Below, piece by piece: positions 21,001-27,000 of a stretch of 41,634 nt of DNA (position 1 is its first letter; every line of letters starts with the position of its first letter). A program made the position numbers. The stretch covers positions 1 to 41,634 of the forward strand of contig CAYLOA010000007.1 of NCBI GenBank assembly GCA_964385185.1, given 5' to 3'. The DNA comes from an uncultured Methanosarcinales archaeon (GTDB lineage: Archaea; Nanobdellota; Nanobdellia; Woesearchaeales; CALCXY01).

Positions 21001-24000
21001 AATACGCAAACTTAAACGAGAAGAAAGATACTTTGTTGAAAGAAAAAGAAGATATCGATTTATTAATGGGCGAAATTGAAGGAAAGAAAACAGACCTATT
21101 CATGAAAACATTTACAGCAGTAAACAACAACTTCAAAAGAATATTTGGTACACTCCAGAAGAAAGGAGATGCATACCTAGAAGTTGAAAATCCTGCCCAA
21201 CCATTTGAGGGCGGTCTTCATTTCAACGTAAGACTAACAGGAAATAAATTTATGGATATCCGTTCACTCTCCGGCGGAGAAAAAACATTAACAGCTTTAG
21301 CATTCATTTTCGCAGTCCAAGAACACGATCCAGCATCATTCTATGTCTTAGATGAGGTTGACGCTGCTCTAGATAAACATAATTCAGAAAAGTTCGCAAA
21401 CTTAATCGGAACATATGCAAATAAAGCCCAATATGTGATCATCTCACACAACGACCAAGTCATCTCCGAAGCTGAAAACTTATACGGAGTTTCTATGAAC
21501 GAACATGGACAAAGTAAAGTTGTCAGTCTTAAAATTTAACCCAATACTTTCTTAATATCACTAACAGTATTCTCCCATGGAAATCTCTCAATAATAGTAG
21601 CTCTTGCACGTAATCCTAACTGCTCACGCAATCCTGGATCTCCAATAAGCTTTTCTAACTGTTCAACAAGTTTTCGAACATTTCCACGACCAAAAAAAAG
21701 ACCATTAATTCCTTCTTTAACATAGCTTCTCAAAAATCCAACAGGAGTCACAACAACAGCTTTTCCACATGACATGGCTTCCATAGTAGCAATACTAGAA
21801 GTCTCAGTAAGAGATGAAAGAACAAACATATCCATGGCTTGATAGTAAGGAACAACATTATCCTGTCCACCCACTAAAGTAACACCACTCTTCCTCAATC
21901 TTTCCACTTCTTCAGGTATTCCCTCACCAACAACCAACAACTGAATATCTCTATATTTCTTTCTTAAAATTACAAATGCCCTCTCCAACGTCCCTAAATC
22001 TTTCTCTCGAGCAATCCTACCTACATATCCAATAACAATATCTTTTCTACGAAACTTTAATTTCTTCTTAGCTTCCCCCCTATTGCCTGGAACAAAACTA
22101 TCACTATCTGTCCCCACATGAACAATTTTTTTAGGGGGTCGAATTTTCTCTCGAACCAAGACATGCCGAATCTCAGACGAAGGAACTAAAATAACATCAC
22201 ATTTGTTATACAAATAAGTGGCAACTTTCTTAGTGACAGTATATGCAAATTCTTTATATCTCTTAACACTTTTACTCACCAGTTCCCATTCTATGGAGTG
22301 CATATAAGAGATAACTTTCTTTTTCTGCTTAGAGGCATAATAAATCGCAGGAGCTCCTATTGGACCAATACTCTGACTAAACACAACATCACTAGAAGCA
22401 ACAAGTTTCTTAATTTTCCGTAAATCAATAACACTAGGTGTATAATCTCCAATAGTAACCTTTTGCAAAGGAATCCTAATCAACGTAATTCCTGGAAATT
22501 TAACTCGTGTACCTACAAAAGCCGGTGCAACAACAGTAATATCATACTCACCTGTCAATCGAGGTATAATCTCAGAAAGAAAACGTGCAACACCATCCCA
22601 TCTAGGCAAAAAAGAATCTGTCGCAATTAAGAGTTTACGTTTCATTGTATCTTAAAAAATACTTCTGCATATCTACAATTTTTCTTCCGTCCATTCACTA
22701 TGGCTTGAAAATACACACTCCATAACAAACTAATAATACTCCCCATCTGGCTTTTATGCACTAAAAATGATTTTATCTTTTTACCAAAGGTTTTAGAAAT
22801 GTTAACAATAAGTTTAGGTTCATTACGACGCCTAACATTAAGAGGATTCCACACATTGAAGCTATACACATCTCCTTTAAACTTCACCAATTTAACGACA
22901 TCCATAACCACTTTCAAAACAGCTCTATGGTCAGGATGAGGATCGTCCATATTATGTGTAAAAATTTTATCAGGTTTTTCTTTAGAGAAGATTTTCTTAA
23001 GCATCTCACGAGCTTTTAACTGTTCTTTAACATCCAACAAATTTCCTTCATGAAGATCTAAGAACTCAACTCCACCACCACCAAGAATTTTATCACTCTT
23101 AATTGCTTCTCTAATTCTTTCTTTACGAATAACTCCTCTTTTCAGATGAGGGTGACTATTTTCACCTACAAAGAACACATAGGTTTTAACCTTTTTACCC
23201 TCTTCAATATATCGGGCCATGGTGCCACCTGCACCAATAATCTGATCATCATTATGCGCACATAATACTAAGACTTTTTCCTTTACCATAACTATGAAAG
23301 AACTAAAGCGGTATAAAAAAGTTCCCTATTTTATACTAACCTTAACCATCTTAATTTCTTCTTTGGGTCGATCACTGCCATCAACTTCTACCTTTCCAAT
23401 CTGTTCAATAATGGGCATTCCGATGACAACTTTCCCAAAAATAGCATGTCTCCCATCAAGATGTGGTGTAGGGCCTAGAGTAATAAAGAATTGACTCCCA
23501 CCTGTATTAGGTCCAGCATTAGCCATACTTAAAATTCCTTTAGAATCATGTTTTAATCCAGGTCCAAACTCATCTTTAATCTCATATCCAGGACCACCTG
23601 TTCCATCTCCACTAGGATCTCCTCCCTGAATCATAAAACCATCAATAACTCTGTGAAATATAATACCATCATAAAATCCTTTTTCAATTAAATCTACAAA
23701 ATTCTTTGTTGTAGCTGGTGCTTTGTCTTCATAAAGTTCAATCTCAACATTACCCATACTTGTTTCCATTAAAACGTGTCTGTTCATATTCTCTCCCCCG
23801 TTGTTATCCACATTAGTTTCCACAGAACCTGCACAACCTAATAGAATAATCAAACTTAGTAATATTAGCTCTTTTTTCATATTCCAAAATATTTTCCCAA
23901 ATCCGTAAATACCACTAGACAAGTAGAGCTAAAGTATATAAATCTTCTCGTCTTATTACATTTCAGGAAAAAGGGGAAAGTAAAGTTAACATAAATTTTC

Positions 24001-27000
24001 TTTCGGAAAATCACGAAATGAATTTAAGCTTCCTTTACTGAAAGGTCTCTTTTTCTTAATCCAAAGTTTAAAGAATTGAAAACTTTGGAGGTAATCGAAA
24101 TGAATAAGCGAGAAAAAATAATACAACTGATCAAACAAGATAAATCAATAAATCATATATCCAGAACACTTGAGGTAGGAAAATCCACCATTTACTACCA
24201 TTACAAAAAGATCAAAGGCAGAAAAATCAAAGAAGTGAAGATTAATGGCACAGATGACATGATTGGTGAATTTATAGGATTATTTGCAGGAGATGGGTGT
24301 TTTTACAAGGCAAAGAATTACCTTTATAGAATATATTTGATTTTTAATATCACCGAAAAGAATTTTGTTTTAGAAACTAAAGATTTACTAACAAAATTAT
24401 TTGATAAATCACCATCTATGTATAGAAGCCTAAATACGTTGATTCTTTTATATAGATCAAGAGACATATTTGATTTCATAATGTCCTATTTGCAGTGGAG
24501 TCCATATAAAAGAAAGGCTCATACAATTTGCCTGAGGAATCACAACCATTCAAGAGCGTTCAAAATTGGTTTCCTCCGTGGAAATGTAGACAGTGATGGT
24601 CACATTTCAAAAAATGTAATCAGTTTTGCTTCCTCCTCTCCATATCTGATTGATGATATTCGAAAGTTCCTTTCAGATTTAAATATCCAACATAAATATA
24701 GAGAGTATGAAGAAAGGAGAACAAATAGGGTAAATATGCATCATGTTAGAATTCTAAAAGAAGATAGAACGAAATTTATGTTATTAATCAAACCAAGAGA
24801 ATTGAAAAATTTAAAAAAGTATGCGCCGGCTGGGATTTGAACCCAGATAGATGGCTATCGACTTTTCCGAAAATTTCGGAAAATTGGAAGGCCACAGTCA
24901 TGCCATTAGACCACCGGCGCATTAGATAATAGAATGAATATCTGCTTTATAAAACTGACGTTTATTTCTCTCTTTTAACAATAAAAATCCAAGCAAGAAT
25001 TGCCCCAATAATATCAGCAACTAAATCCATAGAAGTATTAATATATCCACCTACTCCTGTCGCAGGCATTACAACTACTGCAGCAAACTCCAAAATTTCA
25101 TTGAGAGCTCCTAAACCGAGTCCTGCCATAACTACAACAATACCCACACCAACCCATCCATGCTTTTCAGATAAATGAGGTTTCAAAACTTCCCACATGA
25201 CAACAGTAGCCACAAAAAATCCAACGATATGCACAAATTGATCATATCTAAAAATATTATAGGTATCATTTAACCTTAAAATCATAAATTCATACAATCT
25301 ACCCTCTCCAACAGTAATCCATCCACCAGACATATGCAAAAATCCCCACAAGGACAATCCCCATACAGCAAATGGACTATAATCAATCTTATGACTACTC
25401 TTCAAAAGGACCCAAAAAAAGAATACAACAATACTCACATAAAACACGAATTCATAATTTTTCTGGCTAATATAGAATATTCCATAAAATAGCAGATACA
25501 AAAAAGTAACTAAGGCTACAGTCTTATATTTGGGTTTAATCAAGCTCACGCCTTAAATTAGAAGTAAACCTATTAAAATCTTCCTCTTTTACACAGAATC
25601 CGCAAGCTTGTTCGTGTCCGCCACCATATCCTTCAACACCAATAAGACTCTTATCCAGAATGGGCGGAAGTTTCATATGTTTCCCACAACGTAGACTTCC
25701 TTTAACTTGTCCACCTTTTTTCCGAGCTACGAGTACAACCTTCTTAGGATATCGATAAATCAATTCATTTGAGACATCAGCACTAAAGGACATAACATTT
25801 GCGTCGTAGATAAATTCAACAAGAGTTTCGTCCTTAACCGCTTCTCGAGCATCTTTCCACAATCGTTGATACAGTTCATTGATAGTTACAAACCGTTTCC
25901 AGATAAACTTTCCTTGTGCAGTAGTCTGACCTAAAATTTCCTCAGGGTCATCTATCCGAGTTAACACTTTAATATATTTCATAGCATCGTTAGTAGTCCC
26001 TTTCAAAATAAAACTAAACACTCGAATTAATGTACCCAAACGTGAATTGTAAATAGCATCAGGTGCAACATTAATTTTTTTATCCAATAACTTAGGATAT
26101 GCCTTCTGGAAGGCTTTAACTGTATCCGTATAGAACCAATCTGCAGTAATACCTAAGGCAGCTATCCATAAATCTTGTTGAACGGCTCCATAACACAATT
26201 CAGCTGTAGGACAATGCTTTTCTTTATCTGCTAGTCGTGGATTAAAGTATTTGACATTATTAATCTCTGCAGGTCCGTGATGATCAACCCATATAACAGG
26301 TCTTTTACACTTATCAACAAACTCTTGATCAACAACAGCAACATCTAGAATAAAGATTTTATCAGGATTATACTCTTCAACTTTAGGTAGTAATGTTTCA
26401 TCTAATTTAGGATGAGTTTTAACAATAATTCCCTTACCTTCTCGTTTGTATCTATAAAATAATAAAAATGAGCTTAATCCATCCGGATCATCATCGAAAA
26501 AGAACAAAGGTCTCTGACATTCGTCTAATTCTTTCTTTAAATCTTTGTATTGTTTGTCTGTTAGCATTTTTGGTCCGAGTATAAAAAAAATACACTAAAA
26601 ATAATGAGTATAACTTGGTTTATAAAGTTATGGTTCACGTCTTATAAGCCTCGAGTGTATACATCACACCTTCAGTTTTATTTGGTACATTTCCCACAGT
26701 AGAAAAACCACTTTTACTTAGAATATCCAAAGCCACATCTGTAGAAAGTAAAGATTGAGATCTACGTCCAGCTGTTCGCAAAAGTCTTTGACTTAAAATC
26801 TCAAATTCACTTTGATATTTCTCAAAAACATCTTGAGATTTTAATGACGCTTCTAATACCCTCACCAGTCGTTCCTGATCTCCCCCTTCTTTTCTAGCAG
26901 TAATAACAAAAACACCACCTGGTTTCAATACCCTGTGAGCTTCCCGAATATGTCCCTCATAATCATCTGACAAATGAGCAGCCATCATACTGCTTACCCC

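Follow-up and report, generated by a model that had tools for sequence, protein, structure and literature searches.

A LAGLIDADG gene cassette at the 3' end of a tRNA-Gly(UCC) gene, probably one of a family of free-standing homing endonucleases targeting tRNA gene ends

Gene organization of the tRNA-Gly(UCC) locus

The window (the whole 41,634-nt stretch of contig C7 analyzed here, from the Woesearchaeales genome G000) contained a 941-nt cassette (23881..24821, both strands) between the 3' end of a tRNA-Gly(UCC) gene and the start codon of a cyclophilin-type PPIase gene, while the same-genus genome G001 had 8 nt at this place. The host flanks were the PPIase gene (23326..23880, minus strand; Pfam Pro_isomerase, E 9.7e-55), sharing 76% DNA identity with that of the relative, and, upstream of the tRNA gene, a DUF2238 membrane protein gene (24962..25549, minus strand; Pfam), syntenic in the relative. 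The cassette contained (i) a divergent leader region of 219 nt (23881..24099, both strands) with the TATA-like sequence TTTATATA on the minus strand (23935-23942), ~55 nt before the PPIase ATG, and (ii) a free-standing endonuclease gene (24100..24840, plus strand), an open ORF of 246 aa and the only ORF of at least 60 aa in the cassette. Since the 8-nt empty allele leaves no room for a PPIase promoter, the cassette seems to supply one, for which TTTATATA is a candidate. The ATG at 24100 appeared a better start than the upstream TTG at 24076 because of a GGAGG ribosome-binding-like motif (24087..24091, plus strand) 8 nt 5' of it.

The 246-aa protein matched Pfam LAGLIDADG_3 in two stretches (E 4.9e-15), and it displayed a three-helix HTH (residues ~1-40; weak N-terminal Pfam HTH_38 match, E 0.0017), a two-domain LAGLIDADG core (~52-236), and a disordered tail (237-246). 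Its AF2 model (pLDDT 92.3 and pTM 0.82, with pLDDT <50 at residues 237-246) had I-DmoI as top fold match (E 3e-9, TM 0.79), and a profile comparison with PDB matched I-DmoI across the entire core (E 3.3e-8). G64-D65-G66, D166-G167, and K139, including both catalytic Asp, were invariant in 27/27 homologues. On the best reading of sequence and model, the protein would be an I-DmoI-like LAGLIDADG enzyme, monomeric and with two domains, to which an HTH is added at the N-terminus. The gene for I-DmoI is part of a 23S rRNA bulge-helix-bulge intron, and its product targets the rRNA gene; I-DmoI and other archaeal rRNA-intron LAGLIDADG enzymes resembled the C7 protein in fold, monomeric two-domain layout, and both catalytic acidic residues, but the C7 gene stood free at the edge of a tRNA gene, antisense to the tRNA and not contained in it, and encoded the additional N-terminal HTH.

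An alternative is domestication: a LAGLIDADG protein serving the host in a role tied to the neighboring tRNA, as a WhiA-like regulator or an RNA maturase, would be inherited vertically, its absences being losses. WhiA likewise combines an HTH with a LAGLIDADG scaffold and was among the fold matches (8dy9_I, a weak one), but its HTH is C-terminal and its catalytic residues are lost, unlike the N-terminal HTH and invariant catalytic Asp found here. In archaea a protein endonuclease takes out tRNA introns with no need for a maturase, which counts against the maturase role.

The tRNA-Gly(UCC) gene (24822..24920, minus strand; 99 nt, or 71 nt without its intron, CCA not encoded) was missed by default ARAGORN and detected only with aragorn -i (24821-24921); reading of the sequence placed G1 of the mature tRNA at 24920 and the discriminator at 24822. 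It was the sole Gly-UCC tRNA of the assembly, a second aragorn 'Gly-tcc' at C4:17726 being rejected as a miscalled class-II tRNA. Its 28-nt intron (24857..24884, minus strand, boundaries +/-1; aragorn i(38,28)) lay at or near the canonical position 37/38 and formed a hairpin with the flanking exon (inverted repeat 24852-24894). The endonuclease ORF and the tRNA gene overlapped by 19-20 nt (24822..24840, both strands): the last six codons plus stop were the antisense of the discriminator, the acceptor 3' strand, and the T-stem/T-loop, the stop TGA being the T-loop TCA in antisense. Immediately 3' of the tRNA, the T-rich stretch TACTTTTTTAAATTTTTC (tRNA strand; 24804..24821, minus strand) is likely its archaeal oligo-T terminator; the opposite strand encoded ..ELKNLKKY of the endonuclease tail, and this layout recurred at other filled sites. 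The TATA-like box TTTTATAAAG (tRNA strand; 24945..24954, minus strand), 25-34 nt 5' of the tRNA, was kept as TTTATAAAG in the same-genus relative and may act as tRNA promoter.

tRNA genes are classic integration sites for archaeal viruses and plasmids, a point for taking the cassette as the remnant of an integrase-type element with the tRNA gene as attachment site. PMC3293823 describes, next to a tRNA-Thr of Caldiarchaeum, a 1,868-bp insertion carrying an 813-bp ORF and interprets it as integrase-type integration; according to the same source, SSV/pNOB8-type elements also use a tRNA gene as landing site and leave the tRNA functional, but carry tyrosine recombinases and generate att sites by duplicating part of the tRNA. 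The C7 cassette, unlike these, was smaller than 1 kb and had one nuclease gene but no integrase, no tRNA segment recurred as a direct repeat, and the tRNA-Gly was intact and unduplicated; as the earlier note had claimed, no tRNA-derived flanking repeat was found at the window locus. Such an origin is extremely improbable.

Filled and empty sites within genera and other copies in the same genome

Where the earlier note had a single empty-site comparison, three clean within-genus pairs were now compared: (i) tRNA-Gly, filled in G000 and empty in G001, for which the 8-nt distance to the PPIase ATG held and the cassette measured 941 nt instead of the claimed ~960 nt; (ii) tRNA-Pro(GGG), filled in G283 and empty in G357, with an insert of ~832 nt bounded by a conserved 37-nt spacer and the last base of the tRNA; and (iii) tRNA-Phe(GAA), filled in G001 (~875 nt) and empty in G000 (11 nt). 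The insert started at the last tRNA base or no more than 11 nt away in all three, with a junction precision of 0-1 nt in the best pair, while the boundary of the C7 insert was fixed only to within 8 nt because the 8-nt empty-allele spacer was unalignable. Each change may be a gain or a precise loss. Two same-genus comparisons for the co-directional tRNA-Ala class (see below) were not clean: an unrelated 169-aa ORF stood in place of the endonuclease in G381, and G115 differed in its downstream region and, rather markedly, in its tRNA-Ala.

Three further ORFs reported in the earlier note were recovered from the same genome: (i) a C11 endonuclease ORF (15533-16255, minus strand; Pfam E 2.9e-9), overlapping tRNA-Met 15398-15554(+) by 22 nt; (ii) a C17 endonuclease ORF (7233-7949, minus strand; Pfam E 5.9e-9), overlapping tRNA-Ile 7169-7245(+) by 13 nt; and (iii) a C51 ORF (3169-3969, minus strand), with a Pfam match below cut-off (E 0.0017) and a tRNA 124 nt away. 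The claimed antisense overlaps of 13-22 nt thus held for C7, C11, and C17, as did the rarity of such neighbors: in a proxy gene set (ATG-ORFs of at least 100 aa, n=1309; aragorn tRNAs), 14 ORFs had a tRNA edge within -100..+50 nt of the stop, and the only three overlapping the tRNA were these endonuclease ORFs.

The tRNA-Met copy occurs in the two congeneric genomes (70% DNA identity), which shows that some copies are passed on vertically, as a domesticated host role would have it; the very regular arrangement with its overlapping tRNA signals also fits that role. Against it stand the three precise within-genus indels, the presence in one genome of several paralogues, each at a different tRNA, and a patchy distribution (homologues of the C7 protein in 66/401 genomes of the order, E<=1e-5) with variable copy number and broken copies (L025 with a frameshift, L026 with an in-frame TAG, and L102), and domestication is distinctly unlikely.

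Other LAGLIDADG-like genes of the genome lay away from tRNAs (in C12, at 1590-2801 of the window, and an intein-like one in C4). This would be expected if endonuclease genes landed widely and only tRNA-side insertions survived in tiny gene-dense genomes, with no tRNA-specific cutting, and the DNA downstream of the tRNA, which was not conserved between genomes, points the same way; the near-exact junction of the best pair does not.

tRNA association, clades, and introns across the family

The order search (401 genomes) gave a tRNA at the ORF 3' end in 30/30 of its best loci, 21 of them convergent (tRNA 3' end) and nine co-directional (tRNA 5' end); aragorn identified 18 of these tRNAs, and 12 were identified by eye because they had several introns each. 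The same was true of 19/20 further, lower-ranked free-standing matches. In a GTDB-wide set taking in other DPANN lineages and CPR bacteria, a tRNA edge lay within -100..+50 nt of the stop in 49/68 complete ORFs and at the start in 2/68. The exceptions were a few members 25-83 nt from a tRNA or with none seen (L188 and a number of GTDB loci that automated calling left without a tRNA). The locus sets are not independent, having loci and ancestry in common, and P values therefore look stronger than they are. Across the family, the tRNA association was near-obligate. It reached further than the earlier note had claimed, and two of that note's statements proved too narrow: insertion at tRNA 3' ends applied to C7 and the convergent loci, while a whole co-directional clade sat at the tRNA-Ala 5' end, and the family, found in Woesearchaeales as described, was not confined to them.

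In a tree of 31 proteins, clades resolved by tRNA with hosts from different families: Gly-UCC (seven rows, SH-aLRT 99), tRNA-Ala 5' end (seven rows, support 92), Pro-GGG (95), Gly-GCC/His (98), and an Ile-dominated clade. The endonuclease clades thus tracked tRNA identity and tRNA end, a match across host families unlike what survival alone predicts; together with the excess of tRNAs on the ORF 3' side, it makes wide landing with selective survival very unlikely.

In both orientations, the conserved protein stopped at K-P-R/F, with ~6-9 codons left to the tRNA. At co-directional loci, conserved F-(I/L)-(K/N) codons (TTTATAAA or TTTTTAAA) placed a TATA box ~30 nt before the tRNA, inside the ORF, at a position resembling that in an endonuclease-free tRNA-Ala gene. 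Judged from these sequences, the disordered ORF tail may double as the oligo-T terminator or the TATA box of the tRNA.

Introns in the adjoining tRNAs raise another explanation, collaborative homing, in which the enzyme would cut inside the tRNA gene (T-arm/acceptor), not at its junction, and bulge-helix-bulge introns of the adjacent tRNA, by interrupting the site, would protect the carrier allele and spread by co-conversion. F-CphI and the psbA intron of cyanophages are such a case, in which a free-standing endonuclease gene adjoins an intron-bearing gene, the intron possibly disrupting the target, and offer a possible model for a T-arm intron link; they differ in nuclease family and in having a group I intron, while the present link is statistical and restricted to the Gly-UCC clade. 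A T-arm intron at 53/54, ~20 nt from the insertion point, was present at 11/15 non-redundant convergent Gly-UCC loci, and the 29 endonuclease-free tRNA-Gly(UCC) genes had it in three cases and any T-arm intron in seven (Fisher P 4.5e-5 and 0.003, respectively, uncorrected for relatedness). T-loop introns also lay beside endonucleases at Pro (L022), Ile (L026), and Asn (L031), and the tRNA-Phe pair had D-arm introns in the filled allele and none in the empty one. However, the window tRNA-Gly had no T-arm intron and shared its T-arm sequence unchanged with the empty G001 allele; reading of junctions gave a T-arm intron in only one of ~12 endonuclease-adjacent tRNA-Ile genes; no 5'-proximal introns were seen in the co-directional tRNA-Ala class, nor any such introns in CPR bacterial members; and L065, L080, and L086 had the 53/54 intron but no endonuclease. 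The association may reflect one allele's shared ancestry and is suggestive only, and collaborative homing is a rather unlikely explanation.

Proposed homing at tRNA gene ends and comparison with known systems

The earlier view of a free-standing LAGLIDADG homing element tied to tRNA genes was borne out by the pairs, the tRNA association, the clades, the invariant residues, the fold, and the decaying copies. The locus is probably best described as holding a ~0.94-kb cassette that belongs to a free-standing homing endonuclease family targeting tRNA ends and that has inserted at the 3' end of tRNA-Gly(UCC), a single-copy gene. This family, on the best explanation, is large, occurs in DPANN archaea and CPR bacteria, and has every lineage tied to one tRNA species and one gene end. 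The putative enzyme would recognize the empty junction (the conserved tRNA end plus adjacent DNA) and introduce a double-strand break, repair off the filled allele would copy the cassette in, and the filled allele, its site split by the insertion, would be immune. The non-conserved DNA downstream of the tRNA is awkward for a ~20-bp LAGLIDADG site centred on the junction. Host cost may be low because the tRNA-proximal cassette end would replace the displaced signal: the A-rich disordered ORF tail would be the oligo-T terminator on the other strand in convergent copies, and the F-(I/L)-(K/N) codons would position the TATA box in co-directional ones.

T4 SegB is a free-standing phage homing endonuclease of the GIY-YIG type, intergenic in a tRNA gene cluster, and spreads by break repair with co-conversion of flanks. 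It resembled the present family in being a free-standing, intergenic endonuclease gene adjoining tRNA genes, but it is not known to be fused to a tRNA boundary, while the present LAGLIDADG family, in cellular genomes, had base-precise junctions and overlapped the putative tRNA promoter or terminator, with many lineages each tied to one tRNA.

LAGLIDADG genes are also reported from insertion sequences inside CPR rRNA genes (PMC11270868), and a term search of the main text of that paper returned no 'tRNA'. As far as this source goes, those genes shared with the present family the enzyme family, ultra-small bacterial hosts, and the exploitation of conserved RNA genes, and differed by lying inside the rRNA genes.

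The LAGLIDADG gene and its tRNA-Gly junction

In genome G000 (1.30 Mb in 85 contigs, the window being contig C7), a cyclophilin-type PPIase gene (23326–23880, minus strand; Pfam E 9.7e-55) and a DUF2238 gene (24962–25549, minus strand) flanked the 246-aa endonuclease ORF (24100–24840, plus strand; LAGLIDADG_3 E 4.9e-15 in two stretches, plus weak helix-turn-helix [HTH] matches at residues 2–40) together with tRNA-Gly(UCC) on the minus strand. This tRNA was placed at 24821–24921 with a 28-nt intron by intron-allowing ARAGORN and gave no call with default ARAGORN; sequence reading set its G1 at 24920 and its discriminator at 24822. 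The abutting or overlapping of ORF and tRNA described in an earlier note was borne out: the ORF extended 19 nt into the tRNA antisense, and its TGA stop was the antisense of the T-loop TCA. This was the sole tRNA-Gly(UCC) context in the G000 assembly; a second 'Gly-tcc' called by aragorn (C4:17726–17892) was rejected as a miscalled class-II tRNA.

The other G000 loci of the earlier note were also recovered. A genome-wide PF14528 search returned the C11 ORF (15533–16255, minus strand; Pfam E 2.9e-9) with a 22-nt overlap with tRNA-Met(CAU) and the C17 ORF (7233–7949, minus strand; Pfam E 5.9e-9) with a 13-nt overlap with tRNA-Ile(GAU), while the weak C51 ORF lay 124 nt from its tRNA with Pfam E 0.0017, below the cut-off. 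In agreement with the background figures given there, 14/1309 ATG-ORFs of at least 100 aa had an aragorn tRNA edge within −100 to +50 nt of the stop, and the only three overlapping a tRNA were the endonuclease ORFs of C7, C11, and C17. An RpoD-like ORF 4 nt before tRNA-Leu on C4 was an ordinary gene and not an endonuclease.

LAGLIDADG homing endonucleases perform site-specific double-strand cleavage at a long target of ~14–40 bp. The window protein possessed two LAGLIDADG motifs with a catalytic acidic residue at the end of each: FIGLFAGDG (D65) and FLRGNVDSDG (D166). G64-D65-G66, D166-G167, and K139, among others, were invariant in 27/27 homologues of alignment A1. The AlphaFold model (AF2) on A1 (pLDDT 92.3, pTM 0.82) predicted three N-terminal helices, a linker, and then two alpha/beta LAGLIDADG domains, with residues 237–246 at pLDDT <50. 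Foldseek against PDB placed I-DmoI at the top (E 3e-9, TM 0.79 normalised to target), followed by intein endonuclease domains, I-SceI, I-AniI, and weakly WhiA, and a profile search matched I-DmoI across the whole core (E 3.3e-8); model and I-DmoI matches agreed in the repeated alpha-beta-beta-alpha-beta-beta-alpha fold of the DNA-binding saddle. NCBIfam held no dedicated family for the protein and gave sub-threshold matches to intein-bearing proteins only. With its invariant residues and I-DmoI-like fold, the protein has what is needed for an active monomeric LAGLIDADG enzyme, an activity predicted from sequence and model.

Three known arrangements differed from that of the window. WhiA is a domesticated LAGLIDADG regulator with the catalytic acidic residues lost and a C-terminal HTH, whereas the window protein kept both catalytic Asp residues, invariant among its homologues, and had its HTH at the N terminus. 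Archaeal I-DmoI-type endonuclease genes sit inside bulge-helix-bulge introns of RNA genes; the window gene was free-standing: it lay on the strand opposite to the tRNA, outside it, and had a start and GGAGG of its own, and the 28-nt tRNA intron held no ORF. Integrase-mediated tRNA-targeting elements encode an integrase and are bounded on either side by direct repeats of a tRNA segment; the 941-nt cassette between tRNA-Gly and the PPIase gene contained the endonuclease as its single ORF of at least 60 aa, and a tRNA-derived flanking repeat looked for at this cassette was not found. A 15-nt direct repeat (14/15 identical) bracketed the ORF (24072–24086 and 24798–24812), and the 11-mer TTTCGGAAAAT was common to the cassette leader (24001–24011) and the tRNA intron (24874–24884), both being near chance expectation in AT-rich DNA by a rough estimate. 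Elsewhere in the window, a 404-aa ORF (1590–2801, plus strand) whose C-terminal part matched LAGLIDADG_3 weakly (E 0.0058, below the cut-off) overlapped the start of a 473-aa ORF (2788–4209, plus strand) and adjoined no tRNA; it probably belongs to the LAGLIDADG-like genes of this genome that the earlier note set apart.

Distribution of tRNA-associated relatives

Relatives of the window protein were found in 66/401 genomes of the order (E<=1e-5). Among the 30 best loci (L005–L034, window included), all 30 had a tRNA at the ORF 3′ end, and they fell into two orientations: (i) convergent, the ORF 3′ end meeting the tRNA 3′ end, in 21 loci and (ii) co-directional, the ORF 3′ end meeting the tRNA 5′ end, in nine. 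The tRNA was detected within −100 to +50 nt of the stop by aragorn -i in 18 loci, with strands confirmed by the Rfam tRNA model, and by junction reading in 12 (L006–L011, L022, L025, L026, L031, L032, and L034); these 12 tRNA genes missed by the programs carried D-arm or T-arm introns, and L006 was cut by a contig end. Insertion at tRNA 3′ ends, as originally proposed, thus described the convergent loci but not the co-directional ones. From 51 lower-ranked matches, 20 free-standing frames of ~140–330 aa were fetched as a non-random sample that skipped frames of at least 870 aa (inteins), genomes flagged unpublished, and others; 19/20 had a tRNA within −50 to +52 nt of the stop (programs found 16 of these tRNAs and reading by eye three), the exception L188 being unclear.

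With alignment A2 of 11 homologues as query, one genome per GTDB species was scanned; this gave 80 loci, and 68 were kept after five ORFs off the contig end and seven outside 190–400 aa (fragments and inteins) were dropped. A tRNA edge lay within −100 to +50 nt of the stop in 49/68 and at the start in 2/68 (Fisher P 2e-18, a value that overstates independence since the loci share ancestry). The 49 comprised 27 co-directional and 22 convergent loci, 40 being recognized by aragorn alone and the rest by our own T-loop/acceptor-closure rule; this count was a lower bound, several 'misses' being tRNAs read through by the ORF (L107, L115, and L129). At least nine loci on the same contigs were common to the GTDB and order-wide sets. 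Archaeal hosts in the records included Woese-, Pace-, Nanohalo-, Aenigm-, Micr-, and Iainarchaeota and Altiarchaeales, and CPR bacterial hosts included Adler-, Sungii-, Blackburn-, and Parcubacteria; the family, previously assigned to Woesearchaeales, was therefore found across that order but also in other archaea and CPR bacteria. In the CPR bacteria, the ORF terminated within the 5′ end of tRNA-Tyr(GTA) or tRNA-Ser(CGA). Two CPR loci (L155 1317–2328 and L164 1374–2462) had an HTH-LAGLIDADG gene placed co-directionally between tRNA-Thr(TGT) and tRNA-Tyr(GTA), inside an apparent thrU–tyrU-type tRNA operon, where it and the tRNAs may share a transcript.

For 31 proteins (L025 and L026 omitted as broken; C11, C17, and C51 added), a quick maximum-likelihood tree was computed. 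Its clades followed tRNA identity: (i) a Gly-UCC clade of seven rows (SH-aLRT 99), all convergent, with hosts from seven families; (ii) a tRNA-Ala(GGC/CGC) clade of seven members (support 92), or six without L016 from a genome flagged unpublished (G315), all at the tRNA 5′ end; (iii) Pro-GGG (support 95) and Gly-GCC/His (98) clades; and (iv) an Ile-GAU-dominated clade plus Lys, Ser, and Asn members. The odd aragorn anticodons of L012 and L016 were reassigned to Ala by loop reading. Co-directional relatives were also seen upstream of tRNA-Gly(UCC) with gaps of −15 to +33 nt (L101 2232–2333, L195, and L196; genomes G036 and G331), so different endonuclease lineages can occupy one tRNA species at either of its ends.

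Homing endonuclease genes are known from introns, inteins, and intergenic phage DNA. A search of full-text literature, with most subscription journals outside its coverage, turned up no account of LAGLIDADG genes placed at the ends of archaeal or CPR bacterial tRNA genes. LAGLIDADG genes were described within CPR rRNA genes in a paper whose main text was without the term 'tRNA' (PMC11270868). In Caldiarchaeum, a 1,868-bp insertion at tRNA-Thr has been reported, with a new intron and with an 813-bp ORF that directly adjoins the tRNA and shares its strand; the authors ascribed it to an integrase-type plasmid (PMC3293823). As described there, the 813-bp ORF resembles the co-directional class in size and position. 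Judged from sequence, the window gene would belong to a large family, apparently not described before, of putative free-standing LAGLIDADG homing endonuclease genes specialised for tRNA boundaries, which supports and widens the interpretation in the earlier note. A large diversified family placed exactly at tRNA gene boundaries in cellular genomes would extend that list of niches; this one occurs in ultra-small symbionts of two domains, DPANN archaea and CPR bacteria, and its coding tail would double as tRNA promoter or terminator. Such a family would be an additional class of mobile DNA that shapes tRNA loci in these genomes, a source of dozens of natural LAGLIDADG scaffolds whose tRNA-gene specificities presumably differ, and a testable handle on why archaeal tRNA genes gather odd-position introns and on any tie to mobile-element attack.

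Filled and empty tRNA ends

Presence and absence of the endonuclease gene at one site were observed in three same-genus pairs (tRNA-Gly, tRNA-Pro, and tRNA-Phe). The tRNA-Gly site was compared with G001, the only other genome of the window's genus (77% complete), whose PPIase and DUF2238 genes had 76% and 69% DNA identity to those of G000 with the tRNA between both; the distance from the last base of tRNA-Gly to the PPIase ATG was 8 nt (TCCTCATC) in G001 versus 941 nt in G000, so the empty site reported before was confirmed while its cassette length was corrected from ~960 nt. In the tRNA-Pro(GGG) pair of genus g46, the endonuclease ORF of G283 (filled) ran 50 nt into the tRNA, and G357 (empty) had tRNA-Pro(GGG) after a 37-nt spacer recognisably conserved in G283; the G283 insert of ~832 nt lay between ..TTGT(G/TA) of this spacer and the last base of tRNA-Pro, which fixed the boundary to 0–1 nt. 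In the tRNA-Phe(GAA) pair, the roles were reversed: G001 was filled by a C11/C17-type endonuclease with a 20-nt tRNA overlap, and the empty site on G000 contig C15 consisted of the neighbour's stop codon, 11 nt, and the tRNA. The tRNA-Met copy was present in both genomes of the window's genus, indicating that some copies are older than the genus.

The remaining comparisons were less clean. The locus L018 (tRNA-Ala-CGC, G160) was not collinear with four same-genus genomes and so offered no usable empty site; L013 had lost synteny with 12 relatives of G282, the matches being tRNA-Ala genes only; and the co-directional comparisons G351/G381 and G196/G115 each had a relative without endonuclease, with boundaries that were not clean. 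Public DNA runs containing the stretch numbered 20, and no RNA run was listed with it. Contigs from four runs that contain it in part (X13–X16) were short, of low depth, and identical to the window, with parts of the endonuclease gene among them, and none showed a joined (empty) form. A different case was G351, where a 1360-nt stretch (L021 53–1412) encoding a DEAD-box helicase of 385 aa (Pfam E 3e-37) lay exactly between the tRNA-Ala(GGC) 3′ end and the tRNA-Val start, both tRNAs being adjacent in same-genus G381 (C31:5090–5252); the same G351 tRNA-Ala(GGC) had an endonuclease at its 5′ end.

Classical homing is the most economical reading: the enzyme would recognise and cut the empty tRNA-end junction, break repair would copy the cassette into the cut site by gene conversion, and the insertion would destroy the target site. 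As the DNA beyond the tRNA was not conserved, recognition would have to lean on the tRNA half, and the extra HTH perhaps contacts a conserved T-arm or D-arm box 8–20 bp inside the tRNA.

Overlapping signals and tRNA introns at the junction

The conserved protein part terminated in a (K/R)F..(I/V)KP(R/F)(K/E) motif, and in both orientations the tRNA started 6–9 codons on; the tail between motif and tRNA was disordered in the AF2 model. In convergent loci, A-rich tail codons gave a T-run on the tRNA strand immediately 3′ of the discriminator (TACTTTTTTAAATTTTTC in the window, TTTTTTAATATTTTT at the tRNA-Phe site, and TCTCTCAATTTTAAAAGG at the tRNA-Pro site), and the empty alleles of the tRNA-Gly and tRNA-Phe pairs were without such a T-run. 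In co-directional loci, F-(I/L)-(K/N) codons spelled TTTATAAA or TTTTTAAA, this box ending ~26–35 nt before tRNA base 1; an endonuclease-free tRNA-Ala(GGC) of a relative had its TATA box similarly far upstream. We infer from these junction sequences that the cassette end substitutes for the displaced signal, which would keep a sole-copy tRNA functional. The 219-nt leader of the window cassette contained a TATA-like box that presumably serves PPIase, the gene that starts 8 nt after the tRNA in the G001 empty allele (L003 2160–2190), where neither promoter room nor a T-run was seen and tRNA-Gly and PPIase may be co-transcribed. ORFs without their own stop used the first stop in the tRNA, often the T-loop TCA antisense or U8-A9-G10 as TAG, and other ORFs stopped 0–12 nt ahead of the tRNA; with a stop codon inside the tRNA (past the RNase P site, or tRNA-antisense), tRNA processing could throttle endonuclease expression.

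A T-arm intron at 53/54 was present in 11/15 convergent Gly-UCC loci (non-redundant, order-wide plus GTDB sets), the four without it being the window, L098, L102, and L105. Comparison genes were collected with a 13-nt anticodon-arm pattern, which found tRNA-Gly(UCC) in 181/401 genomes; 30 of the matching loci consisted of 29 real genes, none beside an endonuclease (one, L074, from a genome flagged unpublished), plus one chance match. The 29 endonuclease-free genes had the 53/54 intron in 3/29 and any T-arm intron in 7/29 (Fisher P 4.5e-5 and 0.003, respectively, uncorrected for relatedness). This excess beside endonucleases would fit a minority hypothesis of intron hitch-hiking or protection, but the window tRNA-Gly had no T-arm intron and shared its T-arm with the G001 empty allele, T-arm introns were rare in tRNA-Ile genes beside endonucleases by reading of printed junctions, co-directional tRNA-Ala genes displayed no intron near the 5′ end, and CPR bacterial members had no such introns. 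It seems improbable that endonuclease homing at tRNA ends serves as a vehicle by which non-canonical introns of archaeal tRNAs are gained and spread. In that case, the 53/54 T-arm intron of tRNA-Gly(UCC) would be carried along with the neighbouring endonuclease gene by co-conversion, protect the carrier allele from cutting, or both, and the system would be one of collaborative homing in which a bulge-helix-bulge intron is paired with a free-standing LAGLIDADG gene.

The intron of tRNA-Gly(UCC) was placed at 37/38 in the window (24822–24920) and in the D-arm region in G001 (L003 2076–2171, contig C13), and the acceptor stems were GCGCCGG and GCGTCGA, respectively; such differences within one genus indicate a rapid turnover of tRNA introns in this lineage. 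G000 was rated 100% complete, yet aragorn -i found only 30 tRNA genes, several of them miscalled. Many G000 tRNAs must have non-canonical or multiple introns missed by standard tools; the G001 'Trp-cca' of aragorn was likewise a miscalled tRNA-Phe(GAA). The tRNA-Gly acceptor of L009 (G110:C15) had the 5′ strand GCGTCGG and the 3′ strand CCGGCGC, resulting in a U4-G69 wobble; its 3′ strand, beside the endonuclease, matched other carriers, a pattern that may be the trace of a short co-conversion or due to chance.
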